Positions 26,201 through 41,670 are shown, counted from the stretch's first letter. The stretch: DNA of 64,000 bases from Candidatus Omnitrophota bacterium (GCA_015494465.1 WGBD01000001.1:180477-244476), one strand, 5' to 3'. The notes: a model not told the origin generated them from the letters alone. Program-made: numbers and translations.

Positions 26201-29200
26201 CATCAACGCAGAGATAGCCCCCTCGTTCCACTGAGGGGTAAACTCAGGCTGACTAGACGGTGCGGTCTGTACCTCGACTCTGGCCTCCTTCTTCATCTCC
26301 CGCTCCAAATGGGACTGGGAAACCGCACTTGAACCTCCATTAAGCACATCCTTACCCCAAAGCCTCTCTACGATCTTGCCTATCTCCTGCCCCTTAGCCT
26401 CTCCCCTAAGATAGGCATCCAGTTCACCGTACCTGAAGGCCTCCTTTAGATCCTTTGCCACACCCTTGCCTACTTCCCTCTCCACCCTGTCTATCATCCT
26501 GTCCATCTGGGTCCTTACGGCCTCAAGGGATTCCCGCACCAATTCCTCTGGTGTCAATATCTTTTCTCTGGACAAGAGTTGTTCAAAAGGATTGTCCTTG
26601 GGATTCAGTATCTCCTCCGTTTCGATTCTTTTAAGCCTCTCGTAGACCTCGGGCCTGCCCAAGACCCCATTCTTCGCCCCCGAGACGAACATCTTCCACG
26701 GGGTGGTGAAGAGGTTCGCCCGCATCACATCGGTGAGGATCCTCCGAGTGGCCTTGGCGGATTCCACCGCCTGCATCCCAGCCAGATAAAGGGCAAGTAC
26801 CTTGGACTTCTCCTTACCCTCCCCTTCAAGATACTTATCCAACTCTTCTTCCTTAAGGTTGCCATCCTTGTCCAGGATATCCGAGCGGATCTTCTTCCAC
26901 ATCTCCTTGTAAGACACATTTGAGGCCTTGACCCTTGCTTTGGCCTCTGTCCTCGTCTTCATTACCCTCATATCCACCTGATCTATCAGATCAAGGGTGC
27001 GGGACACGTCTTTGGAACGGAAGAGGTTTTCTTTGAGGAAGTTCTTCACCAGACTATCCGCAACATATATGTAGGCATTACCACTGCTTCCGCCCTCCTT
27101 TCTATTTATCCTTCCCAACACCTGCTCTGCCAATGCCTTGCTCTGGGAAGGAGAGACTATGTCAATGAGGTCCACCCTTGCCTTATCACCTGCGGTTATA
27201 CCTCTGGCTCCCAGTTCACTGACGAGTATCACCTCAGGGGCCCCCGCACCTTTCTCCCCGAGATTCCTTGCTACACTCTCCAACTCCTCCGGCTTATCCG
27301 TATAATCCTCGGCATTTATCCCCTTTTCCCTTAACCTCTTCAATATCTCTTGCCTCATCCCGGTATCCTCTACCACCACATAGTAGGCATCCACCTTTTC
27401 TTTACCCTTGAGGTTGAGCCCGCTTACTATACCGTTCACCACATTATTGATGAATTTATCCTTTTTCTCCTCCTTGAACACATCCCAAAATACCCCGGTC
27501 TGCTTCCCGCTGGTCATCACTACCTTTTCGCCATCAAGGACTAGGGTTATAGGCCTTCCGATGGTCTTCACCCTCTTGCCGGTTATACCCTCAACCAATG
27601 GTTCTATGTCCCTGAGTGTACCGGAGAGGAAGACCACATCACCAAGCCGTGCCACATTCAGCAGTTCTCCCACACTGGTGGAGGTCACCGTGATCCCTCC
27701 CGCCCGGGTATTCTCAAGGGCAGCCTTATAGTCAAATCCTCTTTCTTTGAGCAGCGTAGAAACATGCTTTACCTGCTCTGCTCCTACCCTCACCTCTTCT
27801 GGTTTAAACTCGCCCTTGCTTATCAAACCGGACAGAAAGGCCTTTGCCCCCACATACTGCACATTCTTGCTTATCTGCTCGGGACGGAATTGCCCCTCGC
27901 TATAGGGGACAAAGCGCTTTTCCTTGCCATACCAAGACACCATCCTATCAAAGACCAACTTGCCACCGCCGACCTTAACGCCTTCTATCTCCGCCAGCAC
28001 GGTAACTAGGGAGTTCACTCCAGCCACCGATACACCCTTGCCGACCAACTTATCTCCCCTGCGCTCCAATCTGAAGTCCTTCAGGACCTGAGGGTTTGCC
28101 CCCTCTTTTATCTCGAACATCCCGGTCTGCTGGTTGTAGTTAAAGTTCTCGTTGAGGAACTCCTCAAATCCCTTACCCTCGTACCTCCCAAGTGCCCGTT
28201 TCACCCCTTCCCAGGCAGGCTGTATCTCCTTTTCAACCACATCCGCTATGGGAGCCCCGCCATCCCCTATTATGGCGTCCACCGGGGTCCTCAAAATGGC
28301 CTCCTCATCTATGATGACCCTCGCCCTATCGCCTATCTCCCTCCGCTTTGCTATAAAGGCGGTATACTCTCCCGCCTCGTAGAGTTTATTCATGGCCTGC
28401 TGGAAGGCACTGTACTCCCCAACCACTACCCTTCGCTCATTCGTGTTCGTGAGGACCTCCCTGATCTCTTTTGCATCCATCTTCGTGGGATCTATTACCT
28501 TTATGTTCTCCTTCCCTCTATAGTCTCTAATCAGATTCTCGTTGGAGGTCATGACATACATCTTATTACCGGTGAGTTTTAAGGCCTCTTGTATTACCTT
28601 GTTATCGACGAAGTTCTTCACCAGGGCCGAATTGGCAAGGTACAACTCAGTAAAGCCTTCCTTGGCGTAGTTATGGCTAATCGCCATCATCTCGCTGGCG
28701 TAGGTCTTTCCACCTCCCACAGGGGCCTCTATGTTCCAGAACTTCGCGCCCAAGATACCTTTAAGTTCTTGAACTGCCTTCGGTTTAAAGCCCTTATTCT
28801 CAACCTTCCTGAACGCCTCCTTCGTGGCCCAAGATGCCAAGACCGCACCTCCAATGTGCCGGCTGAGGGACTCAACCTCCTCTTTACTCAACTTCATATC
28901 GGGAGCAAACTCTTTCAGGATAACCTTTACGGCGTGCCTGACCTCCTTACCATCAACTTTCACTCCTGTTTCGCCCTCCTGAACCATCTGCTCGCCGAGT
29001 CCCTTATCTATCTTTGCAACGAGGGCGTCGAATTTCTGCTCAAACAAGGCGAACTTCTCCTTGGGAAGGATACCCCTCGCCGACTCTACCATAGTGGACC
29101 TTTTGACTGCCTCCGTATACACCGAACGGAACTCTTTGGCGCCCATCCTAAACAGGTCCTTATTACCACCCATACCCTCTGAGGCCTTCATCATGCTCCT

Positions 29201-32200
29201 AAGCACCTCCGCCGAGGGAGAACCCATCCCCGCAAGGGCATCCACCGCCTCCTGCACACCTACCGATCCTGCTCTATGGGCAGAGGTCTTTCCAAGGAGA
29301 TCTCCAACTTTTGCCTCAGCGGGGAACAGATTCTTGACCGTTTCCCCGAGATCACCGCTCGCCTCCAGAACCGCACCTTTTTCTACGGCCTTCCGCGCAA
29401 CCCTTTCGCTCGCCTCGTCCACAGCCTGGCGCAACAGGTCGCGGGCAGGAGTGGAGGTTATCCTTATCGATCCCTTCAAGGCCTCTTGGAAGACAGGATG
29501 CTGGAGGAGACTGGTCCTTACCAAACGATAATTCTCATTGACCCGAGCGGCTTTCATCCTGCTGATCTCATACGGGGACTCGAAGGACTTAATGGCAATA
29601 GCGGCATCTACTATTTCCTCCCTAACCTTACCGTAAGTCTCGGGAGAGAGGCTTAACTGAGATTTGTCTCCGAATAAGGTGCCGGTCAACTTCTTGGCGA
29701 TACTGACCACATCGTTCACCTCTTTTCCGGAGATGCGGGCCTGAATCGCCTTTTCTATCTCACTTTCCATCTTGGTACGATCCACCTGCGGTTTCTCTAC
29801 CCCATTCGCAGTATCCTTAGAGATCAATGTCCCAAGTCTTCCCCCAACCGCATTTTCAATATCTGCCCTTAACCGCTCCCTGGAAAGCCCGTTCCTTTCA
29901 CCGATCCCCTCAGCAAACTTCCTCAGAGAGGAGACATAGGCGTCAATGGTTATCCTGCCTTCCGCAAATTCCTTTCCATAGCCTTTTAGAAGGGCATCCA
30001 CGGATTGAGCCACCCGTCCTTCTCTCGCCATGTTCAAAGTGGATATCTCAAAGGCCATCTCGGGGCTGAGTCCCATCTGCCTCAGTCCCCGGAAACTCCT
30101 GCCCTCCTGCGCAAGGACCTCCATAGCCTTCCTCTGGTTAAGGCTATTGACGAGGGCATCCTGATGCATCCTCTTCTCACCGGTCAGCACCTTCACTGCC
30201 TCGCCTCCGCTCATCTCCTGCACCGGCAGACGATAGGATCCTTCTTTCAACATAGACCGCACAGCCCCTGCAGAAATGGAGTTCGCCCTCCCCAAAGGCA
30301 TCTCGTGGATACCCAACACCTTACTGCCCGGAATACGAGGCGCAAGGGCCACCTCACCGCTCCGCTTGGTCTCTATACGGTAGAAGAGGTTCGTCACCTC
30401 CCGTGCAACCGGATGGACCCGGCGGGACTTCACTTCGGAGGTAGAAACTTTCCCGGTTAGCACCTTATTCACATCCCTTTCTAAGCCCTGTAGATTCTCC
30501 GCCACATGTCCCACGGAAGACTGAACAACAGTCCTACCCACCAACGCAGTAGAGAGGGCCTTCCCTCCGAAGGTCGCCCCTACCCCCATCATTGCTGCTT
30601 CACTAGTCATTGCCATACCGAATTCCTTGGGAAGGCTCTTCCACGCACCAAATCCCTCCCTGGCTCCTCTCAAGGCACCTCTAAGGCCAAATTGCCCTTC
30701 GACGGCCTCCCCCCTCCAGCCTTTTACCGCTCCTTCACCCGCACGCAGGATCCGCCCCGTCCCCACATGGGCAACACTGGCCCCCAACAGCGTCCCGGCA
30801 AAACCGGTGAGGTTCTCGTAAACCCCACGACGCTGATCAATACTTTTCAGATTGCCCGCCAAGGCCTGTCCGACCAGAGCCCTGTTGTGCCACATCCAAC
30901 CCAGTTGACGGCTCGCCTCAGCGTAGAACGGCCGTATCACAAACCATGTGTTTGCCAGATCAAAGGCAAGAGAGGAAGAAAAACTCGCCCCCCGCGTCAG
31001 CCTGCTGAATCCACCAAAGAGGAGGCCAAAGGCCCCCATAGTAAGCGAAGTCTCGGCTCCTTTGTATAGCAAACCATACAGGAGATACCTCCTATTCCCG
31101 GTCTGCTCGTATCTTTTCAAGAGATACTCCTGCTTCGTCTTAACGCCTGCTTTATTGAGGTCCTCTCGTCCGATCCAGAATACGGCCCTATCCATCGCCC
31201 TGCTCACCCCGGCAGAAACAAGTCCCATCGCCCGGCCTCCCAATGACTGCCCGTTTCCTGCAGGAACGAAGAAAGAAGCAGTTGCCACGGTCCTGATTAA
31301 AGACGCAGAACTAACCCCGGCACCTGTCGGGACCAAGGCCCTGCCCCCACCGAGGGCAATACGCTCGCCTACGCCAGATCCCAAACCGGAGAGTCTCCCG
31401 GAGACCCTCGCCCCGATACCGGTGATCCTGCCCCTCAGTTCTCCCCCGAGCCGTCCTCCCCATTCCACAACTCTACCTGCTACCCTGCCCACCAATCTTC
31501 CTTCCAGACCGCTACCAACGCTCTCCCAGATCCTAACGGGTACCCCACGAATCCCCTTAATCTTGCCCATCACCCTACCCGCACCAATTACCCTAGACCC
31601 TGCGCGGCCCAATGTCCCCTTGGCCACCTCAACCACCCTGCCGGCCCTAACGGCCCCCACGACTGGGGCGAGGGCAGCACCGGCCAATACTTCCACGGCA
31701 GCCGAATGGGCTAAGATAGGAGCAATCGCATGTAGATACCCTATTGACTTGCCTATCTTCTGCGCAGCCCCATACTTCTCATCTACTACCTTGGATACTT
31801 TCTCCGGCGACAGGCCCGTCAGTATTGGCACGAGACTCTTAAACTCACCTACATAGCCACGACTCATTAGATCTAACTCACGGTTCAGAGTTCGTTCGGA
31901 TCGCTTGGCAGACTCCTTATGCCCAAACATCCGCTCCAAAATGATCCCTATTTTCGCCGGGATCTTGACTAAGAATGAAACAGGTGCCAGCGATTGCCGA
32001 ACGCCTGTCGAAAATGTATCCCCTATGTAAGCGTCCCTCCAATCCTTTAACAACTGCGGATTCTCCTTGAACGCCTTGCCTAACTTCTTTCTCAGGGCAG
32101 CGAAACTCTCCCAGGTGTGCTGGGTGACGAATTTCTTATAAGCCTCGCTAAGGTCCTGCCTGTTCCTCAGCGGATTAGTAACCCAGAGGTGGCGTAGTTC

Positions 32201-35200
32201 CGGTGACTGTGCGACTTTGTGTGCATAATAGTCTGAAGACACCTGAAAGAGTACAGACGGCCGGATGTATTCAGCGGTCAAACCCTGCTTTTTAAGCCCC
32301 TCAAGGGAATTAGACCAACTGTAATTTTTGAAATACTGCCTGAATGCAGTATCCTGCAAACTCCTGTTTACGAATGAAATCGTGGTCTCTTGAGGGCGCA
32401 GAGCCTTCAGAGCGACTGCACTCTTGCCCATAAAGAGGCCCTTTTCCTCATACCTGACCAGCCCTTTCTTCTCGTCAAGGTTGGGGATAAATGCACGCCA
32501 CTCTTTCCCGCTGAGGTCTTGTAAGGCCTTTACGGTGAGCATGCGATCGTCACCGGCCAGATAAACCCCGTTTTTGCCAGCACTCGTGTCGATGTGTACA
32601 CCGTAAACCATTTTTGCTATACTCACCAGCCCGCGACGATCCCTCACCTTATCGCCCCAAGTCCAACCCCGAACGATGTTCACACCTTTGATATCACCAC
32701 TTGGGCCCCGCACAATCGCCGTCGGGAATATAGGCCGGGTCTTTCCGTCGGAGAAGTAGAAGTAATCCTTGGCCATTGCCAGATTGCCTGCAAATCTCCC
32801 GGTGGCATTGGCGACCGTACCCAGTCCGGTGAGAGACCACTCGACCCCCTTTGCACGGACTATATCGCCTTCTTTGTACACCCTTGCCCCGGCCCGGGTA
32901 GCCTCAACGGGACCCTTGGGTTTGGGAGAAGAAGGAACCGCTATCACATTCACCAAGACAGGCAAGTCCCCCTTTATGTTCACGGCACCCGCATTGACCT
33001 GAACCTTTTGCGTCACCAATTCCTGCCTACCATGCGCTACCTTGATGTTCAGGTCCCCCCTTATCCCCGTCCCCCCTCCGGTCAGCGCTACGATGTCTGC
33101 CTTCTTCGAAGAAAGTGAGAGGGTACCTATCCCGATACCCAATTCATTGAGTGCCTTCATTTCCTTATCGGTTAATGTTTCCCCCTTATAGGCCTTTATG
33201 ATAGCGTCCTTCACCTCCCGGGAAATCTTTAGAGCATTCAACTTTTCAGCGAGATCTTCAACTCCCTTGGCAGTCTCAAAAATACCCTTGATCTGATTAT
33301 TTGTCACCTCCCTTGCCAGCAATACCTGCTTCTGAGAGGCGAGGTTGTACATATTGGCAACAGTGGTTCCACCCGTGAGATTTACGCCTCCAAAACCGGT
33401 TACCCTATCGTATGTAGCGCCTCTGTTGATGTTCTGCAAAACCTCAATGTTCTGCACGGGAGTCTTCGCACTTCGGCCGGTATTAAAGGTCCCCACGAGG
33501 AGGTAATTGGCGTTCTCGACATCGCCGGTAAACCTCAACTTGACCGCGTTGCTCTGGTAGGCACTGAGGGTGCCATACATGTTGGTCATAAAGATGGTAA
33601 GCCTCTGATCCGTGGCAAGAAGACCTGCTCCCTCTTTTCTAACCTTTACTTCAATTGTACTGATACCTCCGCTGGACCCCGAACCGGGGGAGGAGCCGGG
33701 TCCTGCCGACAAGAAGGGCACGAACCAGTTCTCTCCCTCTACCTTCCAGGCGTTGTGGGCTCTATCATAACTGAGATTACTCTGTCTCCAATTGCTCACC
33801 CCATCTACCTTAAAGGCTACCTTAAGACCCTTTCCACCCGCTAAAGTAAGATTTCCACCCCGTAGTTTGTACTTTGCCTCTTCAAACTTAAGTCGGCCCT
33901 CCTTAATCCGCCGGACATTGGCAGCCTCCTTTACATTCCCGACATCCGGAGTCTGGACCTTGACCCAACCGCGTTTACCCTCAAACGGGATCTGGATCCA
34001 CACCACCTGTCCCTCATTAACCCCCGAAAACTTTACTTCACCATTAGGATTAAAGGTCGCGGTCATTTTGTTAGTGAAGGCCACCTGATTTACGACATTG
34101 GGAGCGCCGTTCTTCCCGGTGCCATAGGTAATTGGCATTCGATCCGCGGTTTCTCCATGGATGGTGATATTTGTCAACACCCGACGATCAACGAAGTCGC
34201 CGGTTACCTCCGCCGATCCCTTACCGATGCGCACGGAAGAGAAGGTGTTATTTAGTAAGATCTTAGAGGGAGGTTTGAAGTTCAATTCAGCGACGAGCTC
34301 ACTAGCCCTGCCAACAAAATCTGCCTCCGTCTTTGGGATGTCTATCTTTTTCGGTCTTCCTGCATTACCAGAGTCGGGGTTTCCTCCACTAATCCGCATA
34401 GCGTGCACGGGGAGGGTGAGTCGGTTTTTGCCATTTATAAAAGCCCGTCCAGATTTATCTACAGACATCTTGGCCTGCTGGTTTTTATAATTATTGTACG
34501 AGACAGTGACATCGAGAGGTTTCGTAGCGTTTATCCTGCGATTTATTCCCTGATCAGGCGTGACATCCCAGGTAAACGAAACACCATGCCCAAAATCAAC
34601 TTTCACCTTATGGGTTTCCCCTGTTTTTTCATCTCTCAAAACCGTGTCCAAGTGAGTGACATTATTCTGCGTAATCAATGCCCCGTGCTTGAGCACGCCT
34701 TTGTAGGAGGAGATGGCACCGGCCTCGTTAAAGTAGAAGTCCCATGCCCCTCCTTGCTCAGGACGGGCATCCATATCCACCTTATCTGCCAACAAACCGC
34801 CCAAGTAGGTCTCCTTGATAGGCCCCTGCCCTCTTACGACCAGATTCCTTGGTATGATGTCGTAGGTAGAACTCTGCGGGTTGGCAAGGGCGTTCGAGAG
34901 AGAAACCAAGAGATATCTATCTTTTGCCGGTGAATCGGGGTTTGAAGATATGACTTCCTTCACCCACTTTATATCCATAAAGCCATGGCCTTCTGGAATA
35001 GGTTGATCCTGTGGTGGCTGACCCCGAGGTGGCGCCCTATCTGGCAAGAGTCTGGTTCCCCAAACCCTGGAATAAGTCGCACTTACCCTCTTTGCCCACC
35101 AAGCACCTGCGTCTATTAAGGATTGACTAGTCCTCACCACATCCAAACCGTACACTCCTGCGCGCTCGTTGCCTTTGCTATCGTAAACCGGGATCGTAGC

Positions 35201-38200
35201 GACCATTCGCTCGGAAATATTGCCCCGATCCCAAGCAAATCTTATATTCATAGGATCAACACGGCCCTGTGGCAGATTCTTATTCCCCTGCTCTGCAAAG
35301 TCCCTCCCTATGGTCTTGTTCCCAAAAGATATAGTCGAAGAAAGCACACGGGTTGGAGTAAATGTAACGTTCATCTGAGTGATAGGCCCGCCCTGCATCT
35401 CATCGGTTATGTCGGCCTGGACATTCCAACTACCGGCGCCATAGTAGTAACGCCCATCCTTTATTCGCATTACACTGGTCTTTGCTAAGTCCTCCGGGCG
35501 CACATGCTTCACGACTCGGTGAGAGACCCTGTCCTCTCTCAGGTAGTTATCCACAGCCACAAATCCCCGGGTCTCGGGATTGGTGTATTTACCAAACTTC
35601 ACTATCAGATTTTTATTCATTGAGGCATCAAAGAGATCACCGGATCCAGAAATGCTTGTAGAACCACCGAATCCCGGAAGGGATTGGGCAATACCCTCAA
35701 ACTTTACCTTTGCTTTATCCATATAACCGAGGTTATAAGGGTTCACATCATCCCCAAGAGATGTTATAAAGTCGAACTGGAAAGGAGGCATTTCGCCTTT
35801 TGTATTACTACCGGAAGTCTGTGAAGCACCCGCACCCGTCTCTGATACAGTCTGCTGAGGCGCAGCCAATGCCACAAGAAATTTATCATCTTTACTTCTA
35901 AGCACTTTATCTTCTGGACTCAAGACCATAGACCTAGTTTCGCCTGTCTGGATGGAGTAATCCCGCCATAGGAAAGCGTCTAACGGATTATCTTCTAAAG
36001 TAGAAAATGTCTTCTCTGGGCCAAACAATAGATTTAAGGTCCATTCTTCACCTGGATAGTATGCAGTTAATTCCCCTCGAACCTCTTTCGAAGATCCTTC
36101 AAGCTTATCCATATGATAACTCAGTTTGAAACCTTCACCCCTCATAACCGTATTTACATCAAATGTAGCAGATACAGGTTTTTCAAATTGCGCCTCCGCT
36201 TCGTATCCGATGCCATTTTCCACCCTGTACCTATCAAAAGCAATGTGGCTAATTCTGGCTGCCGTGCCTGGGGCGAGTTCTAACTTATTGTCCAATACTG
36301 CCGTCCAGAACTTCTGTTTGCTTATAGGCTCTACCCACCCTGTCTTCTCAGACAGAGCAAATCCCCGCCGGATGCCGTTTATCTCAATCTCACCGGCCTT
36401 TTTACCCCAAAGCATAGTATTCCGGAAGTCAAACGCCATCCCTTCCTCTGCAAAGGGATTCACCCTCATCCCCGCCCTCAATGACGCAAAGACCTCCTTC
36501 GCTCTCACTCCCTCGTCGGCCTTCAACCTCGCCTTCCCAACATTTTCGGGTAACTCCGCAGTAAGGGCGACGACATCTCTGGACAGTTGAGTCGTCCGCA
36601 CGGATGCAAGTGCCTGTGGGGTGGGTTGTCTTTGAGGTGAGGGTGTATTCGTGGATCTGACTGTTTTATCCCAAGAAAAATGAAATATGCTTCCTTCGTC
36701 CATCCAGTATTCATCCGATTCTTTCCGATGGATAACTCCGGTGGTATACACCCATTCCCTCCCTATCTGGTGAACACCCTTCGGGAGACCCGTGCCCTTT
36801 TCAATGAGATCGTTTCTACCCCAACTGAACACCGGCACTTTTCCCTCAGGGCTTAAATAGTAAAACCTCCCACCAACTATCCCGTCGCTTAATAACATAC
36901 CCATCTCACCGGGCAAATTCCCCTTAGCAAACCTCTCCTCTAATCTCCCCAAATACGCCTTACCGGTCTCCTCCTTACGCAGGATGTTATCCAGTTGTCC
37001 AAGGTCCGTCCCCCCCGCTTCCAAGCGGCGGAAGGCCCCTAAGACCCGACCTACATTGAGCTGTCCGGAAGAGGAAAGGTAGGTTGGAACTCGATAGGAA
37101 AAGAACTTCGCATGAGTGGCTATGCCAACGGTGATGTCCTCCTCCATCCGCTCATCATAGGTGTACCTATTCTCAAAAGTGCCTACGGGGGTGTAGGTGG
37201 CCAGATCGTATAATTGACTATTATTGGCATATTCACCAGCGCGATTTACATAACCCAAGAAAGTGGTGCTATTATCCATCCAGCGGGAAAACAATCCCGC
37301 AAACGGCCCCGAACCTTTTCTTATTTTCATACCCAAAACATCTCCGAACTTGATCCCTTTCCCTTCGGATCCATATACACCATTCAATCCCACGAAGACC
37401 GGTCTTTTATCACTGAGATGAAGGGCATAAAGACCGGAGGAGAGAAATATCTTATCCATTATATTCGTAGAGACCGCGTGGGCGCCCTGAGAGACCATCC
37501 TGCCCCAGACCTCACCTGGAGTAGGGAGTAGATGATAACGCCAATCGCTGACGCCGTGCTCCTTCAACTTATCCGCTATCCCGGACATCTGGACTATCCC
37601 GGCGGCATTTGCCAATCTCATTGCATATCCACTCGAGGCTGCCTGATAAGAGGAGAAATCCCCGTAATTGCCAAGCTCCGGCGGACGCCAAGTGGCCAAG
37701 ACTCCCTTCAGTTGACGCATCGAACCCGAAAAGGCCTCTTTCCAGGTTGGCCTGCGGAGGGTCATCTTTCCGTCAGGTCCAACGACCGGATGGGTGGTAG
37801 CCTTGGCCCACAAAGCGCTGGCCCCAACCAGCGCCAAGGTGGTAACCTGTGAACTGGCATAGGGGCTTAGACCTAGTTTATCCTCCGCAAGGTCCTCCAG
37901 CTTGCCAACTGCCAAGTCCGCAATTCCACCTCTGACCCCCGATATCAACACATCCTTCCAAAACTCACTCGAAGCCAAGGACGAACCTGAATAGCCTTCA
38001 CCCGTGGAGGCAATGCCTCTTCCTACCGCAGAGCTTATGGAAGTGCTGACCAATCCCCTCAGGAAGTTGTCTTTTACCCACCCCTTCTTCTCCGCGAGGC
38101 CAGTAACTGCCAATCCCACGCCCTCCGAACCCCATTGAGAGAGGTTAGTTCTAGAAAAAGCATCTTTAATCCCCCGTCCAAAGCCTCCCTTAGTCAAGGG

Positions 38201-39601
38201 CGCGAGTTTGGATTCCAGATCCGAGCCTTTTATCCAAGCAGGCGCTGCATTCTCTCCATCCGGGGTAAGGCTATAGGCAAGGCCGTTCATCAGCGCAGTG
38301 CTGGCTATCTTACCACCTAAACCTGAGATACTCGCCCGCAGATAAGGCTTGGAACTGATGTGCTTGGCGATGAGGTTGTCCACACCTACCACTGATGCTC
38401 CAACTATTCCTCCTTGCAGGGCACCAACCAAAGCCGCCTTGGCCACCGAATGCCCCACCCAATCCACGGTCTTGGACCCCAGGTTCCCGATAATAGTCTT
38501 CTCTACCACCATACGCTTAAAGGCCTCTTCTGTCAGGTGCTGCTGGATGGCTGTCCGTTTCAGGTCGTACATCTGAAGCCCTCCCAGGGTGGCCTGCTGG
38601 GCTACAAAACCGCTCAACTGACCCACCCACACCGGAGCCTTAAGAACCCCAGTGGTAATGTTGGAAGCGATGTTTCCTACATTGGCTGCCGTCAAAGCGG
38701 TGGTAAAGCTCGTCCCCGTGAGAGCGGAACTAACCCCCGCACTTACCAAAGACATGCCCACACTCAGGGCCACATCGCCAAGGCTCATCCCCGGAAGCAT
38801 ATCATCGATGTCCACTGCATCTTCGGGCCCTTCCCTTCTGAACCCACCCCGCAAAGCGAGTGCCTCTTCCAACCGCAGTACTTGATAGCCACCACGCACT
38901 CTATTAAGATCCCTCCTTGGAACCAGCACCACACCAGAGAAGTGCTCCGAGAAGTCTTTCAAGGGCGAGATAAACATCTCGCCATTGCTCACATATGCCA
39001 TTACCTTCCCAACCGACAGGACCTCAACATAGTGCCCGCCAAAGCTATCCAGGAGGGCGATAAAGCGCAGGCCTGTGAGGGCCAACAAATCCTTCACCCT
39101 TATAGGCACCAGCGGAAGGTGGTGATACGCAGAAAGCAGAGCCAAGGCGTAGACGGAGACCTGTTTGAAGTTCCCAGTCCCACCGGCCTCAATGAGATCC
39201 ACCATCCTAGAATAGAGGCCAAAGCCCTTTTTAGGCGAGACACCGTTGTCCAACAGGAATTGGTAAAGGACCTCCTCACCACAGTTGGCGAGGTAATCCC
39301 AGACCTTGTGCGGGTGTTTGCTTACGCCCCAGGCCAACAAGGCCTTCCTCAGCCACTTATCGTCCTTTGCATATCCCCACCTTACCGCAAGATCGTAGGC
39401 AAGGGAAGGGGGCAGCTTTTCTCCCAAGACCTGCAAGGCGGTACTCTGCACCTGTGAGGCCAAGGTCCCTAACCGGATGTGGCGGGCGAGGAAATTAGGA
39501 TCGTAACCGTATGCCCAAGAGATATTTTCAAATATGAATAAAATGCTTGTAAAAATCGCCAAAAATTGGGCAAAAATTTTTCTGCCCTTCATAGGCAACA
39601 C
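8234..39601 (-). CDS. giant multi-domain membrane-associated protein (10,455 aa). Its domains are a C39/papain-like peptidase, a SecA-like DEAD motor ATPase, YD/RHS-like repeats, low-complexity tracts and multiple TM clusters
   Basis: A single uninterrupted reading frame of 31,368 nt. It starts at a GTG at 39601, or at the ATG at 39592 preceded by AAGGGG, and lies 34 nt downstream of the tadC-like gene. The internal motifs listed in the findings are read directly from the translation. Confidence 0.85.
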   Translation of the reverse strand: MLPMKGRKIFAQFLAIFTSILFIFENISWAYGYDPNFLARHIRLGTLASQVQSTALQVLGEKLPPSLAYDLAVRWGYAKDDKWLRKALLAWGVSKHPHKVWDYLANCGEEVLYQFLLDNGVSPKKGFGLYSRMVDLIEAGGTGNFKQVSVYALALLSAYHHLPLVPIRVKDLLALTGLRFIALLDSFGGHYVEVLSVGKVMAYVSNGEMFISPLKDFSEHFSGVVLVPRRDLNRVRGGYQVLRLEEALALRGGFRREGPEDAVDIDDMLPGMSLGDVALSVGMSLVSAGVSSALTGTSFTTALTAANVGNIASNITTGVLKAPVWVGQLSGFVAQQATLGGLQMYDLKRTAIQQHLTEEAFKRMVVEKTIIGNLGSKTVDWVGHSVAKAALVGALQGGIVGASVVGVDNLIAKHISSKPYLRASISGLGGKIASTALMNGLAYSLTPDGENAAPAWIKGSDLESKLAPLTKGGFGRGIKDAFSRTNLSQWGSEGVGLAVTGLAEKKGWVKDNFLRGLVSTSISSAVGRGIASTGEGYSGSSLASSEFWKDVLISGVRGGIADLAVGKLEDLAEDKLGLSPYASSQVTTLALVGASALWAKATTHPVVGPDGKMTLRRPTWKEAFSGSMRQLKGVLATWRPPELGNYGDFSSYQAASSGYAMRLANAAGIVQMSGIADKLKEHGVSDWRYHLLPTPGEVWGRMVSQGAHAVSTNIMDKIFLSSGLYALHLSDKRPVFVGLNGVYGSEGKGIKFGDVLGMKIRKGSGPFAGLFSRWMDNSTTFLGYVNRAGEYANNSQLYDLATYTPVGTFENRYTYDERMEEDITVGIATHAKFFSYRVPTYLSSSGQLNVGRVLGAFRRLEAGGTDLGQLDNILRKEETGKAYLGRLEERFAKGNLPGEMGMLLSDGIVGGRFYYLSPEGKVPVFSWGRNDLIEKGTGLPKGVHQIGREWVYTTGVIHRKESDEYWMDEGSIFHFSWDKTVRSTNTPSPQRQPTPQALASVRTTQLSRDVVALTAELPENVGKARLKADEGVRAKEVFASLRAGMRVNPFAEEGMAFDFRNTMLWGKKAGEIEINGIRRGFALSEKTGWVEPISKQKFWTAVLDNKLELAPGTAARISHIAFDRYRVENGIGYEAEAQFEKPVSATFDVNTVMRGEGFKLSYHMDKLEGSSKEVRGELTAYYPGEEWTLNLLFGPEKTFSTLEDNPLDAFLWRDYSIQTGETRSMVLSPEDKVLRSKDDKFLVALAAPQQTVSETGAGASQTSGSNTKGEMPPFQFDFITSLGDDVNPYNLGYMDKAKVKFEGIAQSLPGFGGSTSISGSGDLFDASMNKNLIVKFGKYTNPETRGFVAVDNYLREDRVSHRVVKHVRPEDLAKTSVMRIKDGRYYYGAGSWNVQADITDEMQGGPITQMNVTFTPTRVLSSTISFGNKTIGRDFAEQGNKNLPQGRVDPMNIRFAWDRGNISERMVATIPVYDSKGNERAGVYGLDVVRTSQSLIDAGAWWAKRVSATYSRVWGTRLLPDRAPPRGQPPQDQPIPEGHGFMDIKWVKEVISSNPDSPAKDRYLLVSLSNALANPQSSTYDIIPRNLVVRGQGPIKETYLGGLLADKVDMDARPEQGGAWDFYFNEAGAISSYKGVLKHGALITQNNVTHLDTVLRDEKTGETHKVKVDFGHGVSFTWDVTPDQGINRRINATKPLDVTVSYNNYKNQQAKMSVDKSGRAFINGKNRLTLPVHAMRISGGNPDSGNAGRPKKIDIPKTEADFVGRASELVAELNFKPPSKILLNNTFSSVRIGKGSAEVTGDFVDRRVLTNITIHGETADRMPITYGTGKNGAPNVVNQVAFTNKMTATFNPNGEVKFSGVNEGQVVWIQIPFEGKRGWVKVQTPDVGNVKEAANVRRIKEGRLKFEEAKYKLRGGNLTLAGGKGLKVAFKVDGVSNWRQSNLSYDRAHNAWKVEGENWFVPFLSAGPGSSPGSGSSGGISTIEVKVRKEGAGLLATDQRLTIFMTNMYGTLSAYQSNAVKLRFTGDVENANYLLVGTFNTGRSAKTPVQNIEVLQNINRGATYDRVTGFGGVNLTGGTTVANMYNLASQKQVLLAREVTNNQIKGIFETAKGVEDLAEKLNALKISREVKDAIIKAYKGETLTDKEMKALNELGIGIGTLSLSSKKADIVALTGGGTGIRGDLNIKVAHGRQELVTQKVQVNAGAVNIKGDLPVLVNVIAVPSSPKPKGPVEATRAGARVYKEGDIVRAKGVEWSLTGLGTVANATGRFAGNLAMAKDYFYFSDGKTRPIFPTAIVRGPSGDIKGVNIVRGWTWGDKVRDRRGLVSIAKMVYGVHIDTSAGKNGVYLAGDDRMLTVKALQDLSGKEWRAFIPNLDEKKGLVRYEEKGLFMGKSAVALKALRPQETTISFVNRSLQDTAFRQYFKNYSWSNSLEGLKKQGLTAEYIRPSVLFQVSSDYYAHKVAQSPELRHLWVTNPLRNRQDLSEAYKKFVTQHTWESFAALRKKLGKAFKENPQLLKDWRDAYIGDTFSTGVRQSLAPVSFLVKIPAKIGIILERMFGHKESAKRSERTLNRELDLMSRGYVGEFKSLVPILTGLSPEKVSKVVDEKYGAAQKIGKSIGYLHAIAPILAHSAAVEVLAGAALAPVVGAVRAGRVVEVAKGTLGRAGSRVIGAGRVMGKIKGIRGVPVRIWESVGSGLEGRLVGRVAGRVVEWGGRLGGELRGRITGIGARVSGRLSGLGSGVGERIALGGGRALVPTGAGVSSASLIRTVATASFFVPAGNGQSLGGRAMGLVSAGVSRAMDRAVFWIGREDLNKAGVKTKQEYLLKRYEQTGNRRYLLYGLLYKGAETSLTMGAFGLLFGGFSRLTRGASFSSSLAFDLANTWFVIRPFYAEASRQLGWMWHNRALVGQALAGNLKSIDQRRGVYENLTGFAGTLLGASVAHVGTGRILRAGEGAVKGWRGEAVEGQFGLRGALRGAREGFGAWKSLPKEFGMAMTSEAAMMGVGATFGGKALSTALVGRTVVQSSVGHVAENLQGLERDVNKVLTGKVSTSEVKSRRVHPVAREVTNLFYRIETKRSGEVALAPRIPGSKVLGIHEMPLGRANSISAGAVRSMLKEGSYRLPVQEMSGGEAVKVLTGEKRMHQDALVNSLNQRKAMEVLAQEGRSFRGLRQMGLSPEMAFEISTLNMAREGRVAQSVDALLKGYGKEFAEGRITIDAYVSSLRKFAEGIGERNGLSRERLRADIENAVGGRLGTLISKDTANGVEKPQVDRTKMESEIEKAIQARISGKEVNDVVSIAKKLTGTLFGDKSQLSLSPETYGKVREEIVDAAIAIKSFESPYEISRMKAARVNENYRLVRTSLLQHPVFQEALKGSIRITSTPARDLLRQAVDEASERVARKAVEKGAVLEASGDLGETVKNLFPAEAKVGDLLGKTSAHRAGSVGVQEAVDALAGMGSPSAEVLRSMMKASEGMGGNKDLFRMGAKEFRSVYTEAVKRSTMVESARGILPKEKFALFEQKFDALVAKIDKGLGEQMVQEGETGVKVDGKEVRHAVKVILKEFAPDMKLSKEEVESLSRHIGGAVLASWATKEAFRKVENKGFKPKAVQELKGILGAKFWNIEAPVGGGKTYASEMMAISHNYAKEGFTELYLANSALVKNFVDNKVIQEALKLTGNKMYVMTSNENLIRDYRGKENIKVIDPTKMDAKEIREVLTNTNERRVVVGEYSAFQQAMNKLYEAGEYTAFIAKRREIGDRARVIIDEEAILRTPVDAIIGDGGAPIADVVEKEIQPAWEGVKRALGRYEGKGFEEFLNENFNYNQQTGMFEIKEGANPQVLKDFRLERRGDKLVGKGVSVAGVNSLVTVLAEIEGVKVGGGKLVFDRMVSWYGKEKRFVPYSEGQFRPEQISKNVQYVGAKAFLSGLISKGEFKPEEVRVGAEQVKHVSTLLKERGFDYKAALENTRAGGITVTSTSVGELLNVARLGDVVFLSGTLRDIEPLVEGITGKRVKTIGRPITLVLDGEKVVMTSGKQTGVFWDVFKEEKKDKFINNVVNGIVSGLNLKGKEKVDAYYVVVEDTGMRQEILKRLREKGINAEDYTDKPEELESVARNLGEKGAGAPEVILVSELGARGITAGDKARVDLIDIVSPSQSKALAEQVLGRINRKEGGSSGNAYIYVADSLVKNFLKENLFRSKDVSRTLDLIDQVDMRVMKTRTEAKARVKASNVSYKEMWKKIRSDILDKDGNLKEEELDKYLEGEGKEKSKVLALYLAGMQAVESAKATRRILTDVMRANLFTTPWKMFVSGAKNGVLGRPEVYERLKRIETEEILNPKDNPFEQLLSREKILTPEELVRESLEAVRTQMDRMIDRVEREVGKGVAKDLKEAFRYGELDAYLRGEAKGQEIGKIVERLWGKDVLNGGSSAVSQSHLEREMKKEARVEVQTAPSSQPEFTPQWNEGAISALMVEKAPGHGRTAYDTAKVVVNALAKDMPVEVRRNLEYQLARSFAGMSPTTLRAPPAVANLLNGALNKLPNQISSALQSVNQITAQISQLNPNQVSNEQLQQISVQLNSLLANPVVSNVLAEDKNQILNQAIENISKGSFNGDTQKQVVEALSEIGKKLNTRKDEVETLNEKFTSPAQALAGIKNISEKVGDKTGEIRDALTHVFVNPNLSYEQALRVVGYSELMRNRLGITDEDFIRKEAFRAKDMGLEEFLNNLSVRLSTPKRVGASKVASVNLAHQRAKMEFLREWRNPSLGWSGKIGALGGYLGSVASSSLKAILSTPLAVERELALPEIDNGKVLDNIGALKGQLGLRLRDRMIPSFSFSAPVGPMPKVATGTALAGVVGLGLLLLNPSIALATGGAIAVAGASGIAKVIAGVSSLPVLGWSVLNRGVPKRGIRWSEIESKGLTALGLNSLEDGKLAREMATAMLAGGKAEAVRSVLSGLETALGDRAKAIEDNITVRDAMKLADSDVSLRDKFDILARYLPDEGQLRGLKRALAEASAPANPFATMLENRWMAKFAQVDPVSSAIDAVARAVVNNGVENTDLVGKVLSALVNGGNEDLSSLLGAGERANKQFKDLVDRYRKEGRLARLYHKGLSVQSRVLGRKGYLLPLTVLTVTSGGAGLLAMFGTYAGWKAVTKGPGAIMSDLANSRLSLTTAVPVLAGMSFLPSVGMPAAVAAALAGAAGGAVLGIGRELRALLSQLREANWKEAIRKTDWRSLAGSAFKAGAGLGAIYAGGMLATAHASLWAYWGIGIPALFVGYSQFIQGWLGLRRTAASLSNEKMTGYAGNEALKVAVDSLGRVELVPDESNRLEGISGDRERLVKEFGLKEETIKRLSEAEVSSLRRELERRKEEYLLSAYSSVRSAGFVWEMDEVALKEFAQRFMGLDEARLSNLSVHELRRTIANWYARLGITGLPKKLAVYAWVADKLGWSTARRMVDGVMFVPRTMIHLLDSFFGQSFRKRWLVAQFRDYRVLPEEEVNRVVSAFLSLPEEERGNFGIVGKTRSAFERNVTLGGTLDFLKRRGTLFVLSSLATLGVANLFALAPFLSTGVVSLFGHKVAIAPYLANTFSLSALFTAPSMVKVRRIRSAQRKLDELLRAVGYQNNAPPVRVDDTTAVRELLRKLREEQDLEDERLVGLARSLQFFWPEVEWRSLVNELGLDVKEVRLSLPERTVSYLATFGRGLFSSTTLRYALPGMVPLMLLPLEIHMVLSTAHHLHISWLVAPIETTMLNLVRSGVMVASSVVLPGLGSSVAGLVGGVNERDRLAKEAGKATSEPSFLERTLGRALNWLMGSVASPVKAGERPKEIKKGPAPVKVKTPKITNPVKVQQKIEQATIEAKKPVPEKVLNALETEFRKALNWKKIQRKMLNKETYALQVEGPEYSIKKVFTNPIAFKKWVKKIKEEGGEVIVKNAINGQILTPADLDAIHREGKNVPVMLEVKAKSGEEYRFFFGYHAWEKDKAVQEQYLVSREVANALDRALAEGDVERALKVLDDYIKGLSSGRSGGEGGDDPNAQILRELKRVRQMLQAKASARQTGPIVAVVMDVDPVTGIPTGVKALISKGELKEVILPDGRKQVLVKVGDKEYEVKAYRVKGTSDELEEVTWEEIKSKASGSLQFRIVVKGEKDARRMPMLFGTVWSAKQEFARSILSAISQASMVSHLEGQVRAGTAWFFATLGSAFVSPQIGAGFKLAAILFGILDRYVGRHDYEQAFRQKLNDYLLWVMAVEKVRKENAGRKLDPTSTAVRGEVLKAYKWLKSKYGQDLNEADYQELYRLFMSAIRNVDEDKDFVKALGQGDATEKLDRDILTFTGILSSLAELTEKDWDRGAKEVFHNYWFGLPWEIKLHNIVYKFIDREYLSYDHAPKYKVEKSKGPYGREKAKKLNRLPIGVTIDVRYILHQLREFVDKTNTLEEVRDRNPLFKLLFWWKDSLKDALHIYLWGVDITLPFRIKATKDLVEILTNQKKGYEDTDVLLVKGRDVKEKMSLEEFESRLAEFDPAKGGWVLLGYMSPSGKMSGENKGSSVPVYAYVEVKKGRLGQPDAEIEVKGMAMFTSKGVRKSLEISRQKYQNMLKYFRVVNQRQGGVIIEELDEKGHTKEIVDIRPGKDAQRTARRLQTSAAQIVRFWDVYKRYHFRVQEMKEALKGAKGPDRKILLQGIEAIRTLEEEGVDVSRLKEVFDVDMYFSKFYLPYKDGSVKRFTIIVSTDEVAKQVKRLKLQGEFARKVEGALKQGKIAISVGKENGEVKEVVVDEKEVRAIFNKINHLPDVERIKAFRKDFVNIPIDLDGDGEKEVITVHFPSGDKPVEVDWVNPDTGLVEKLVIKDGHLLAQISANGKVTIYNWKKYSDERDFLVKDSAEVYEFSRDVRGRSWDEIRRLIYTGKARHLYHIRIHQILRDPNKEVVDLSEITEIHEVLDLRTGEKKKVFYGWFLQPVMVEKRGDRFAENHQIIENEFDRQGRLKRSAVYKGRDSRLYLAELWERALVDKDGNASFKVIKFTPDRSEIARETVKLDIFGRDIERKLANGGVIKTLYGGLSDLPKRVIFYRPDGKVAKEIYDIHIEKGGMAVGKVKGEDTAWYEETWVWDRKELSADPVLKMNANTVEQVKEIREDGTVVREVKDKHGELLKRIEEKWVKIDGKVWKVAEVWSYREGKSYQISDAYGDLIARAVPTRYVDEKGSTSYGLVWTRVIYEGKIAGNRVRMREAILVDYLPKDIRDLLPRMLSGKWDGARQEILERARSRYDAKKKEVWVRFEKYVRYRTKDGKTRTGVKTREEKVGPAGVPVRVKLVDKKYDQEWWIRKVYPEKGGLTPERQVILERTPLGELADIRGQNEEVTGEVTIAGKVYTIKRVVDRKTKVAYAVIEGDWDELKERLSPELISKITSSLKKDVRAWRSGILLKEKGKHYFVYAQGEEYIEVQAKGLDEIKGLPENVKAKLRDLLQERKVLPNAYLAFTIRRNPISGMDHIKVYVPEDNALGQELVEFVVDEKGLVPPVMLLPRQFLLSEPVVMERYQLTEGNWINVGKIVQADVSKKDGDVFVTAQVIYFDKSMVIQDYRASNNPFGQLMKIMSESRKEKAFPIPATGVAVQPPIGGTICKGKWVLRGPGKESTIAELESFGEMSGDSLIKHILQNIRGIDPTVSKEMLELFARLRGTDLSLGRTRVVSNGKVIVSLVKAGDPAAREVGRLEINEKGEILSITLYGKWLDKFPVMGYEIDLVNHKIYKVWTEMNERAYLDLLDDKALHFFLKQVDLGHLQGEGARQVLAKMVNVVVRDLVAEREVNGNWKVYKPRRWVDVLLMGTYDIGLSNPVGKLSVEVDRENGKIVPRRILQGSLYRIGQITSEVEQVRQILGDKAEILHRVAQGGARRLVKIGNVSFVLIGFEKNRAEFAETFILEVRNPGDTHLPMGTRIYIRRYYGDRDLYYVSFVDKNGNALAEYLYDANRGKWFEQFHVKRYVWQDEEGNDYTAIEVIPTHKYQKSTKDLGRKYILLRNGVLIYSTTQLTRDMSTAEGVPTFVHLWDYFRNSFLGKILFGIFPVGTPEGILEKVLKEGELVADTEAVSHLAEELSPYFASAVEQVIRHKDEYRTPDLEKPIKAKPKEGTARDWQGNRNWLGAIVGLLTKQLSPSEAYRVILPTAVGLFAFWYLWIGGLLFVLPMLVAVFGVPVVYWLSRKQLRKMYSQFRLNLNSMTWRQVQELGLSKEETALVMMARQRALGFRNSLEFVEAMFKTRYQVDRDDEKVAFLRGGGFVNEVRNRLGLGEDVSWQELRDKLEGREDLQALTLALILASLSGADLSKYPKAKKALMRASRELVRIGNFSLPAVAWDSFRGVSDLDGIIDWISSGRENLGGFLKRFAGRLSDEERRKMEEDLRDSAKRLQALGMDEEVGRRRLLSIALGYILASDAYKQELADRMDEFFSAEGWKKDPYLNQYYVNMRASMFNRFLDGLTEINGRPRLKVEVVDFPGEEELAKEDLFIFDYTDDMNPYPVDFEYGRFSYGALHGVRYWLGMNALISRGIYSLTSQGRFEEWLWENIVSKRIYDEDIVSAVNALIPQISNLRSVLIKVMASNISAHETQRDAATLIRGKGRVMTEEVLNIVFRYLNQVNRGLYKGNSAQVRESAKALQDTLVAIAEGKEVSPAELDRAMFRFYKALIDAGDVILTGRRFNIWEYKFKELGFVWKNMGRIFSQGAVNNLTYKERMRRIAHLAIMLSSLGLALLIGSYFDWDVVNVGVPAGVDLRSLVGLPLAGAIAVVSVALYDTQVKRRLTGRSLILAQTILGLALLALAGAVVLHTFHAPVIPSTVIEIPDPVRYALAVGAYVLAFFTMVVLTPFSQSYLTMGSLGLRTMNEMALYAVGDNPKEIRRALVDLLTDERVGYVNTRLTLGEENRVKFALVLEAMSSTEEGEMLISPEVVRQLERAMGITRGEDGEIDVDRFGAVDRAELERLLDALLKNGAIKSRFRDFANQLLRRGGLTLYRSASEFDNQIIVHNGYSELPFFTVNELFAKNENEDHMVSRIGLLLSVPEKREEFVALKDYARSMREKGPEWTYLEKMLDDLLAYADRPEDIPDVHTWLEKLFGEKAKTEGVEKALNLLTVWANRRLQAAVNTTSTARWALNRVYTATLILNKESVRDRLEEMVNYKAVLPETVISYAFKKGYTPDEEGKLLYDWASERLKEDLPKLSEREVRDLYLSSRIRVVSRLLQPHMNVAQNEEIFDLEKDVDTYKRFFYGAMETSERVRDLWEKGQGAIEDARVPGKVIGENGGIATHGLKRFLYEVIATDSMPFIMSSNEQFHGAKWNQFAAVVPLSTSRAILAVDADHAFRPENQFAEVGELMNYRFDSYASATIPKIRHHMSKGFGIIGKVLPVGEEGFYASHIGKYEIGGMGAYGKFFIRTTPMRWSEGATTSYVAEDLMTVIAFQSFTGGDRYPVGYYVSQNPSMIIEKAWPYQYVDAATPVYKWSQDAPESAYSRYSINMMLAPSSSWAYILNNYWLDGLGFYTKKVLITRYIRWALLAFLILDWNPFTATPLALWISGLLLSQAININLLLYHVRILGKGWKRGIKDMLKEIPARLYWAYVHWLFMYEESVGQVGMKMYARFITTPGKGAQLAYAPEKRIYGIAYRTIKQYALISLLTFLFAGASPLKMVLWGVTFFMPIAGALGPALMNPADKRPTKNLWELLGKGGRVVAIAGAVAGAVLLPGVVMGIKSLIGSAIVGSGVLGVLSLWPFAILGAGLGWVAGVLMANGESRYRMLFRIKQLGRIYWYGVADAVEGVITRLMLGDTMRRVFLLDPYKLYNYEVGKKAPVNPYAIYRRISAGPLFAMLARWPKLPDLEEEKGKKEEEKKEKVKGEAGAGGSSVNEKGKEEKKETKKAQEKWEDRARALSTTISEILIAYVTLYAKNGMIESVKDEIIDRVAGILERNPKIAGVYWAFVNEKYILNKEKKRKVPLHNLEMTLYGKLEAYKDEVPDLDEVEISEKEIRDVLNALVKVEDELEQKYGMPGLRPSRFWALFDRGPLAVIMAIPLMAVYTVWIGLTYVIVPVRLALQGVRSRGRVRQVPGPSDAGVWMRLKARVRNWFRGTRMGIDVAPLKRKDAGLRFEVSVREVRPGAKVLVDVRKAGLLRRMEMAHMEAKVRFWLRQAGVRADYVLIWVEDRPEGAKAVQLLDNGVLVLDASAMREDESSFKEELLGLFSPRARITDAIDSIRIEGVRDSLHMRRALKDVVDALVREGYSEDEILTALLRYREIRMAERPMLMDADKGILYIHPVLLENGRASRIMLRAGLHFGIERQLRPTASKEELFFSMFDYMSSLISQVYRKSISYYVGRVVAKIIPGMEVYRIKELMDIASRKWPEEVKSLSMFGISLFEMAEEWRWWLTREIWERNPFMYGVYRLWRRLRDGLIVINQRWRGLWFRLWHKAPPVEVRRAFETAV

Positions 39602-40538: not shown

Positions 40539-40542
40539 ATTG

Positions 40543-41397: not shown

Positions 41398-41416
41398 CTC
41401 CCCCCTCCCCCCGGCG

Positions 41417-41659: not shown

Positions 41660-41670
41660 AAACGCCGTCC

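Follow-up and report, generated by a model that had tools for sequence, protein, structure and literature searches.

A 64,000-nucleotide stretch of DNA from a Candidatus Omnitrophota bacterium (GCA_015494465.1, WGBD01000001.1:180477-244476; referred to below as the window) contains an open reading frame (ORF) for a giant protein of 10,455 amino acids (aa), and we find that residues ~95-232 of this protein are very probably a highly divergent homologue of the C39 cysteine peptidases, followed closely by a conserved motif that resembles a double-glycine leader. If the domain is indeed a C39 homologue it is likely to be active as a protease, judging from the residues that it retains, and if it is active then the balance tips slightly towards the adjacent double glycine being its predicted site of cleavage. 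The combined picture, in which a divergent C39 protease would cut its own double-glycine site within the giant protein, is put forward as a tentative reading of the sequence.

An earlier, sequence-only reading of the window had called attention to a papain-like signature near the N-terminus of this protein, quoting two motif strings, both of which are present exactly as quoted, HKVWDYLANCGEEVLYQFLL and LLDSFGGHYVEVLSVG (the latter region also reads LLDSFGGHYVEVLSVGKVMAYVSNGEMFISPLKDFSEHFSGVVLVP). The segment that it had boxed, minus-strand positions 39002-39319, corresponds to aa 95-200 of the giant ORF and includes both Cys107 and His190, yet it covers only the first three quarters of the domain, with Asn206 and a later F-S-G sequence lying outside and the domain end near position 38906. 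The translation of the ORF opens MLPMKGRKIFAQFLAIFTSILFIFENISWAYGYDP. The GTG codon at 39599-39601 overlaps the Shine-Dalgarno sequence AAGGGG, an ATG at 39590-39592 sits 8 nt past AAGGGG, and the two relatives described below, P0001 and L001, both begin at the equivalent Met, as MG(R/K)K. Because of this ribosome-binding-site spacing and the starts of the homologues we prefer the ATG, 9 nt downstream of the GTG, which is probably the true start of the gene; the protein is then probably 3 residues shorter and all of the residue numbers given here may be 3 too high, the numbering having been kept from the GTG as in the sequence-only reading. Scanned in three sections that together span its 10,455 aa, the giant protein matched no Pfam family at E<=0.01.

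Relatives of the N-terminal region are few. In an exhaustive phmmer search of 1.84 billion cluster representatives only P0001 was recovered (5,886 aa; aa 9-255 matched at E 9e-14 with 31% identity). Scanning genomes, one for each species, added L001 (40% identity), a truncated gene start on a contig from a Candidatus Omnitrophota metagenome-assembled genome (MAG), and a scan of metagenome contigs returned the same contig and nothing further. A word-indexed search of 5.8 billion proteins gave no match with aa 1-260 of the window protein, with an alignment of two sequences or with a 730-aa alignment of three. The family discussed in what follows is made up of these three sequences, window protein, P0001 and L001, with overall identities of 30-48%.

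The relationship to C39 peptidases is seen most clearly at the level of profiles. When a profile built from the three relatives (aa 81-260 of the window protein) was aligned using hhalign with solved C39 domains, for which the reference alignment comprised LahT150 (6mpz), ComA (3k8u), PCAT1 (4ry2) and CvaB, the last having seeded the PDB search, a probability of 83%, an E value of 8.8e-6 and a score of 39.6 over 115 columns were obtained. In this alignment the catalytic Cys, His and Asp of the reference domains are matched by Cys107, His190 and Asn206, respectively, and their F-T-G by the F-S-G of aa 221-223. None of 200 column-shuffled controls reached the real score (mean 12.1, standard deviation 2.0, maximum 22.95), which lies ~13 standard deviations above them, and the reversed profile scored 15.0. 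Independently, L001 matches PF03412 (Peptidase_C39) with an E value of 0.0016 and 18.7 bits, its aa 147-233 covering positions 45-130 of 133, which places the match in the half of the domain that carries His and Asp. The gathering threshold of 22 bits is not reached by L001 and membership of PF03412 by this measure fails for the window protein and P0001 alike, the first 298 residues of the latter giving no Pfam match.

Structure prediction points in the same direction. AlphaFold2 models were built from two sequences for aa 1-260 (model 1) and aa 88-262 (model 2) and compared by Foldseek with 350,542 PDB chains. For model 1 the top ten matches are all C39 domains (PCAT1, 3b79 and LahT150), ComA follows at rank 14, and the E values run from 6e-3 to 0.1; for model 2 the first two ranks are taken by PCAT1 (E 0.05). 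Further down the lists are other members of clan CA, among them AvrPphB, MCF, USP-like deubiquitinases, the NlpC/P60 protein SagA and PlyPy. Their presence, along with the proposal that Omnitrophota giants attack the cell walls of prey (bioRxiv 10.1101/2023.11.21.568195), could be taken to indicate a papain fold put to other chemistry, such as an NlpC/P60-CHAP cell-wall amidase, a transglutaminase or an acyltransferase directed at the prey envelope. However, C39 domains came first in both fold searches, PF03412 is the sole Pfam match of the family, with no NlpC_P60, CHAP or transglutaminase match even at E<=10, and both the C39-specific F-T/S-G and the acidic or amide residue at His+16 are present, so that we regard such chemistry as distinctly improbable.

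It might also be asked whether two short motifs have simply been matched by chance in a huge protein, with no peptidase fold behind them. The window protein has no Pfam or NCBIfam match, no PDB sequence match and models of low confidence, all of which would be expected in that case, but a chance match is difficult to reconcile with a score so far above the shuffled controls over an alignment of 115 columns in which all three catalytic positions coincide, with the independent sub-threshold PF03412 match in L001, or with C39 domains heading the Foldseek lists of two models, and we consider it highly improbable. An hmmsearch --max with both profiles showed no second C39-like domain, whether near Cys7611, in other parts of the giant protein or anywhere in P0001.

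The predicted catalytic residues are well preserved. Cys107 (N-C-G-E), the predicted nucleophile, and His190 (GHYVEV), the predicted general base, are invariant in all three relatives. A predicted helix starts at Cys+2 in both models, His190 opens a predicted β-strand, and the two residues are 83 positions apart, as compared with ~75-80 in C39 domains. The conservation, the hhalign register, the PF03412 match of L001 and the Foldseek results together support the proposal of the sequence-only reading that this is a C39/papain-like domain with Cys107 and His190 as its catalytic pair. The third triad position is occupied by Asn206 in the window protein (His+16), by Asp at +16 in L001 and by Asp at +18 in P0001. 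In papain (clan CA) the third residue is normally Asn, and for this reason a triad is still possible with Asn206. In LahT150 the corresponding residues, His101 and Asp117, are spaced by 16 (PMC6363468).

Cys is exceedingly rare in the giant protein, accounting for only 2 of 10,455 residues (positions 107 and 7611), whereas the 15 neighbouring proteins have 68 in 6,713 aa (mean 1.0%) and P0001 has 16 in 5,886 aa. A Cys that falls on the catalytic column of a protein otherwise nearly free of this residue is therefore hard to explain without a function. Less favorable is the region preceding the nucleophile, since C39 domains carry the oxyanion-hole Gln at Cys-6 and no conserved Gln is found near this position in the three relatives. 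The loss is not decisive because a role for Gln in the oxyanion hole has been doubted for LahT150 itself, where it is 4.3 Å away (PMC6363468). Like its counterpart in HlyB, the domain might lack catalysis and only bind a helical segment, of the giant protein or of the export machinery, as a chaperone or docking module in secretion. This would account for the missing Gln, for Asn in place of Asp in the window protein and for the extreme divergence from Pfam C39, and the C39-like domains (CLDs) of the HlyB type are an established precedent. CLDs are, however, defined by loss of the Cys, while here neither Cys nor His varies and the former has persisted in a protein nearly devoid of cysteine; furthermore, the role of Gln is questioned even in the active LahT150 and Asn is normal in papain. 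We consider a non-catalytic role improbable, and identity with an HlyB-type dead domain was rejected since none of the three relatives has lost Cys107.

A search for double-glycine-type cleavage motifs, suggested in the sequence-only reading, located a conserved leader-like motif directly after the domain, 11 residues past its last strand. In the window protein it reads YQVLRLEEALALRGG↓F (↓ marks a bond that is cut or predicted to be cut), with L242 at -12, E246 at -8, L250 at -4, G252 at -2 and G253 at -1, placing the predicted scissile bond at G253↓F254. The same columns read LSFEESRHIWGG↓R in P0001 and ISVEEAKTVLGS↓R in L001. All three sequences keep a hydrophobic residue at -12, Glu at -8, a hydrophobic residue at -4, Gly at -2 and Gly or Ser at -1, and two of them have Ser at -11; for comparison, the leader consensus is Leu(-12)-x3-Glu(-8)-Leu(-7) ahead of Gly-Gly, Gly-Ala or Gly-Ser (PMC6363468). 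The helix of the leader-like segment is predicted with a pLDDT (predicted local distance difference test score) of ~74, against a mean of 58 for model 2. A linker of 11 residues could span ~35 Å, and binding in cis would therefore be sterically plausible.

In order to gauge how often such a motif would arise fortuitously we scanned for the pattern [LIVMF]-x3-E-x3-[LIVMF]-x-G-[GSA], for which 1.4e-4 matches per residue, or 1.4 per giant protein, are expected in shuffled sequence. Two matches occur in the giant protein, aa 242-253 and aa 3869-3880, and one in P0001, at the homologous site; the pattern is absent from every other open frame of at least 50 aa in the six frames of the window. The match at aa 3869-3880 is compatible with chance and lies in a region without detectable similarity to P0001. 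No small gene for a double-glycine leader substrate is present within the window, and the neighbouring small genes, considered as candidate substrates, were rejected, as they encode Flp-type pilins without the motif. The sequence-only reading had left the choice between auto-processing of the giant protein and action on partner proteins of the locus. Since a conserved motif is available in cis and none is seen in the other frames, it is the former that is favoured.

An active C39-like protease might nevertheless be aimed at other targets, either sites internal to the giant protein, which would then be cut into several products, the secretion apparatus, or proteins of prey or host, as has been proposed for the N-terminal C39 domains of giants (bioRxiv 10.1101/2023.11.21.568195). 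The conserved catalytic residues fit this reading, the weaker match at aa 3869-3880 offers a candidate internal site, and an extracytoplasmic location, which we infer below, would permit contact with external substrates. Against this, the strict pattern is found in the giant protein at about the level expected from shuffling, the region of the second match is unlike P0001, no motif occurs in the other frames of the window, and the Flp-type pilins (G↓QSxxEY) are cut by prepilin peptidases and not by C39 enzymes. Other targets would also leave the conserved double-glycine motif beside the domain unexplained. We view this alternative as unlikely, though it is the strongest of those considered here.

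The hydrophobic N-terminal segment described in the sequence-only reading does precede the domain. It reads KGRK + IFAQFLAIFTSILFIF + ENISWA↓Y, with a basic n-region (K5, R7 and K8), a 16-residue hydrophobic core and a hydropathy of 1.88 over aa 9-27, and the S-W-A↓Y that follows the core has small residues at -3 and -1, as in a Sec signal peptide or signal anchor. Because it is situated behind a Sec-type signal or anchor, the protease domain is probably extracytoplasmic; with a basic n-region before the helix and an acidic flank behind it, the positive-inside rule would likewise leave the N-terminus cytoplasmic and put the protease domain on the far side of the membrane. We considered whether the N-terminus might be a signal of prepilin type (class III) and rejected this, as it lacks the G↓xxxxE(Y) seen in the pilins of the same locus. 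Residues 21-40, which include the YxYDPNF that follows the signal, are identical to L001 at 16 of 20 positions, and the pattern F-[IL]-[FV]-E-N-[IV]-S-W-A-Y-x-Y-D-[PL]-[ND] (aa 1-37 region, 39490-39601, minus strand) is conserved far beyond what is usual for signal peptides. Conservation of this kind suggests a recognition or sorting role for the region beyond Sec targeting. Between the signal and the protease domain, model 1 has helices at aa 35-59, 65-78 and 81-95 with pLDDT values of 74-84, in a region (aa 31-94) that is poorly conserved, with 6 of 20 residues identical per block.

The sequence that follows the predicted cut is also unusually well conserved. Residues 261-280 (DAVDIDDMLPGMSLGDVALS), beginning 8 residues past the site, are identical to L001 at 17 of 20 positions and, apart from the signal region, form the top block of the N-terminal 400 residues, the protease domain itself being 25-55% identical. 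Within aa 254-290 there is an acidic D-x-D-D cluster, after which come weakly hydrophobic stretches rich in Gly, Ala and Ser that extend to ~aa 410; such stretches might insert into membranes or resemble glycine zippers.

If the domain does cut its own chain, the following sequence of events can be envisaged. The N-terminus of the giant protein would be exported, after which the domain would bind the helix of aa 242-250 in its hydrophobic groove and cleave after G253, either on its own chain or on that of a neighbouring copy. Cleavage would detach a signal/protease module of ~250 residues from the remaining ~10,200 residues, and the conserved new N-terminus (FRREGPEDAVDIDD...), acidic and then rich in Gly, Ala and Ser, would be exposed on the ~10,200-residue chain. 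The freed chain might then be handled by the adjacent machinery, which resembles Tad and type II secretion systems (T2SS), or be inserted into a membrane. It is conceivable, albeit rather doubtful, that the N-terminal ~290 aa constitute a cassette of signal, C39 protease, its own double-glycine leader and neo-N-terminus, which would act in cis in the manner of peptidase-containing ATP-binding cassette (ABC) transporters (PCATs) but outside the cytoplasm, auto-releasing the 10,200-residue protein, with the neo-N-terminus serving as a Tad/T2SS recognition or membrane-insertion signal.

A number of points weigh against self-cleavage by this domain. Canonical C39 domains act in the cytoplasm, on ABC transporters, and not in the periplasm. 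If signal peptidase removes the signal peptide, release from the membrane needs no second cut. The profile searches called for by the sequence-only reading came up empty on the window protein even at E<=10, with no Pfam match for aa 1-300, 1-280 or 91-230 and no NCBIfam match for the N-terminus, and no match was obtained in PDB sequence searches using either the single sequence or a 2-sequence profile. For its structural check, C39 domains are the best Foldseek matches of both models, but at low pLDDT (58-61; 61.4 for model 1 and 57.9 for model 2) and with no Foldseek match at E<=0.001 for either, which makes the check a weak one; the models are of low confidence because there is no deeper alignment than these few relatives. 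An invariant Trp101 takes the place of an oxyanion-hole Gln that is itself invariant in the four reference C39 domains. Conservation of the motif, seen in only three sequences, may merely reflect the shared ancestry of a conserved linker. Finally, position -7 of the motif is Ala, Ser and Ala in the three sequences where the consensus has Leu, and replacement of Leu-7 by Lys or Asp strongly impaired cleavage by LahT150 (PMC6363468).

Table 1. Positions of the giant ORF, its N-terminal elements and other features of the window (coordinates counted from the first nucleotide of the window)
Feature	Position	Strand	Basis or description
Giant ORF	8234..39601	minus	Uninterrupted, 10,455 codons, GTG start; protease domain at N-terminus
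N-terminal export signal, aa 1-30	39512..39601	minus	Sequence features, hydropathy
Helical region between signal and protease domain, aa 31-94	39320..39511	minus	AlphaFold2 model 1
C39-like cysteine peptidase domain, aa 95-232	38906..39319	minus	hhalign, shuffle control, Foldseek, L001 PF03412 match
Trp101, invariant, at Cys-6	39299..39301	minus	Position of oxyanion-hole Gln in C39
Cys107, predicted nucleophile (N-C-G-E)	39281..39283	minus	Aligned to catalytic Cys of LahT150, ComA, PCAT1
His190 (G-H-Y-V), predicted general base	39032..39034	minus	Aligned to catalytic His (HFVV)
Asn206, third triad position, His+16	38984..38986	minus	Aligned to C39 catalytic Asp
Double-glycine leader-like motif, aa 239-253, YQVLRLEEALALRGG	38843..38887	minus	Pattern, conservation
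Conserved block after predicted cut, aa 254-290, FRREGPEDAVDIDDMLPGMSLGDVALSVGMSLVSAGV	38732..38842	minus	Identity to L001
Second, weaker double-glycine-type match, aa 3869-3880, LAEIEGVKVGGG, then K	27962-27997	minus	Pattern scan
Stretch like P0001, aa 4320-4555	25937-26644	minus	27% identity
Stretch like P0001, aa 10085-10437	8291-9349	minus	25% identity
Two T2SS-F/TadB-TadC-like membrane protein genes	39636-40538, 40543-41397	minus	PF00482, E 2e-14 and 1e-19
557-aa protein	41671-43344	minus	N-terminal transmembrane segment, very Lys-rich C-terminus, no Pfam domain
322-aa protein	43564-44532	minus	No Pfam domain
Eight small ORFs (56-124 aa)	44826-47332	minus	Motif: Flp-type class III signal + hydrophobic helix
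SurA_N_3/Rotamase_2 peptidyl-prolyl isomerase	48629-50005	plus	Only sizeable plus-strand gene of the region
tRNA gene	67-141	minus	Only Rfam match in the window, 54.9 bits

Only three stretches are common to the giant protein and P0001, the N-terminal ~730 aa, aa 4320-4555 and the C-terminal ~350 aa, and conserved end modules thus appear to bracket a variable middle. A simple hydropathy scan of the giant protein reveals 21 hydrophobic segments, with clusters at ~aa 4840-5770, 8150-8850 and 9650-10050. The G+C content is mostly 52-58% in the giant gene (8001-32000) and 46-47% in the Tad-like/pilin region (40001-48000), and the GC skew is negative throughout, which fits nearly all of the genes being on the minus strand.

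Immediately upstream of the giant gene, and co-oriented with it, are the two TadB/TadC-like genes (Table 1), with which a Tad/T2SS-like cluster ends and which are syntenic in L001 with identities of 62-65%, and beyond these are genes for conserved proteins of 120, 557, 96 and 322 aa without a Pfam domain, of which the 557- and 322-aa products are 36-37% identical to their syntenic counterparts on the L001 contig. Overall, gene order and sequence match this MAG contig gene for gene, with identities of 36-65%. The Flp-type signal of the eight small ORFs conforms to (K/R/I/S/P)-G↓Q-(S/A)-x-(A/I/V)-E-(Y/I/V); eight pilin or pseudopilin ORFs are an unusually large set for one Tad-like locus and none of them matches a pilin Pfam family. 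Further upstream lie a full-length GspF, a ROK regulator, GH2-like glycosidases and a sugar ABC importer (BPD_transp_1 twice and SBP_bac_8). The locus has three T2SSF matches in total, and no GspD-, GspE- or CpaF-type Pfam match was found in the ORFs scanned. There is no rRNA in the window.

N-terminal C39 domains on Omnitrophota giant proteins have been published already (West-Roberts et al. 2023, bioRxiv 10.1101/2023.11.21.568195), and a cluster of 24 proteins with a PF03412 architecture has been described among such giants (bioRxiv 10.64898/2026.06.07.730766). The protein studied here resembles them in its length of more than 10,000 aa and in its N-terminal layout, a signal peptide and then a C39-type domain, and its locus resembles theirs in the T2SS-F genes, pilins with class III signals, a Rotamase_2/SurA-like peptidyl-prolyl isomerase, glycoside hydrolases and a sugar ABC importer; the SurA_N_3/Rotamase_2 gene corresponds to the 'conserved peptidyl-prolyl isomerase' reported beside Omnitrophota giant genes. 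Unlike the published C39 giants, its domain is not seen by Pfam and is shared with only two other sequences, and in contrast to the 'Archaeovorin' and dockerin-type giants Pfam recognises nothing in the remainder of the protein, the 'Archaeovorin' set (glycosyltransferase, methyltransferase, glycoside hydrolase, NUDIX and SecA-like) having no counterpart here at E<=0.01. Whether giants act as one chain or as cut pieces is stated to be an open question (bioRxiv 10.1101/2023.11.21.568195). The term 'double-glycine' occurs in the text of neither preprint, and the terms 'leader', 'cleavage site', 'cysteine', 'double glycine' and 'GG motif' are absent from that of 2023.

With the C39 domains of PCATs, also termed AMS (ABC transporter maturation and secretion) proteins (LahT, ComA, PCAT1, CvaB; MEROPS C39), the catalytic core is homologous at the profile level. 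Shared features are C-G at a helix N-terminus, an H-(F/Y)-V strand ~80 residues on, an acid or amide at His+16 and F/W-T/S-G, and the substrate motif hydrophobic(-12)-x3-Glu(-8)-x3-hydrophobic(-4)-x-Gly-Gly/Ser is matched as well. In contrast to PCATs there is no ABC fusion, neither ABC_membrane nor ABC_tran being matched in the giant protein, and the ABC genes nearby encode only sugar-importer permeases (BPD_transp_1) and a solute-binding protein. The domain is, in addition, probably extracytoplasmic rather than cytoplasmic and has Trp for Gln at Cys-6 and, in the window protein, Asn for Asp. Whereas a PCAT leader is the N-terminus of a separate small peptide, the candidate leader here is part of the same chain, C-terminal to the protease, with a 'cargo' of 10,200 residues.

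The CLDs of HlyB-type ABC transporters, which belong to type I secretion systems (T1SS) for RTX (repeats-in-toxin) proteins, offer a parallel in that a degenerate C39 fold is tied to the export of very large proteins, and the CLD 3zua is barely seen by sequence search even with a genuine C39 query (E 0.0026). CLDs no longer possess the catalytic Cys, however, and are without cleavage activity, unlike the present domain with its invariant Cys and His. A functional analogy is provided by LapG, a periplasmic cysteine protease of the BTLCP (bacterial transglutaminase-like cysteine proteinase) family (MEROPS C93) that cuts the N-terminal retention module of LapA at a di-alanine site, so that a papain-fold protease removes the N-terminal module of a giant surface protein and controls its release. 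LapG is, on the other hand, a separate, regulated protein of another family and LapA is exported by a T1SS and carries a TAAG site, as opposed to a C39 domain in cis and a double-glycine site here. Tox-PL-C39 is listed among the domains of polymorphic toxins with cognate immunity proteins (Zhang et al. 2012, PMC3482391) and is likewise a C39-related papain-like domain within a large secreted multidomain protein; the domain described here differs in its N-terminal location behind a signal, and no candidate immunity gene was seen in the window.

Because N-terminal C39 domains on Omnitrophota giants are already in the literature, the basic finding is not new. What is new is the extreme divergence of this subfamily, which is invisible to Pfam, has three members and carries Trp in place of Gln, together with the near-total absence of Cys apart from the predicted nucleophile and the presence of a conserved double-glycine site in cis. 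Pfam-based surveys undercount C39 domains in giant proteins, Pfam being empty across this giant and the first 298 residues of P0001. With a predicted nucleophile, Cys107, and a predicted bond, G253↓F254, processing of the giant protein becomes testable on a module of ~250 residues, without recourse to the 1.1-MDa protein. If the leader in cis is genuine, double-glycine processing would extend from the small peptides of ABC transporters to the self-maturation of giant secreted proteins, and if the N-terminal region does function as a self-releasing cassette then, for the first time, both a processing site and a mechanism of maturation would be defined for one of the Omnitrophota giants.

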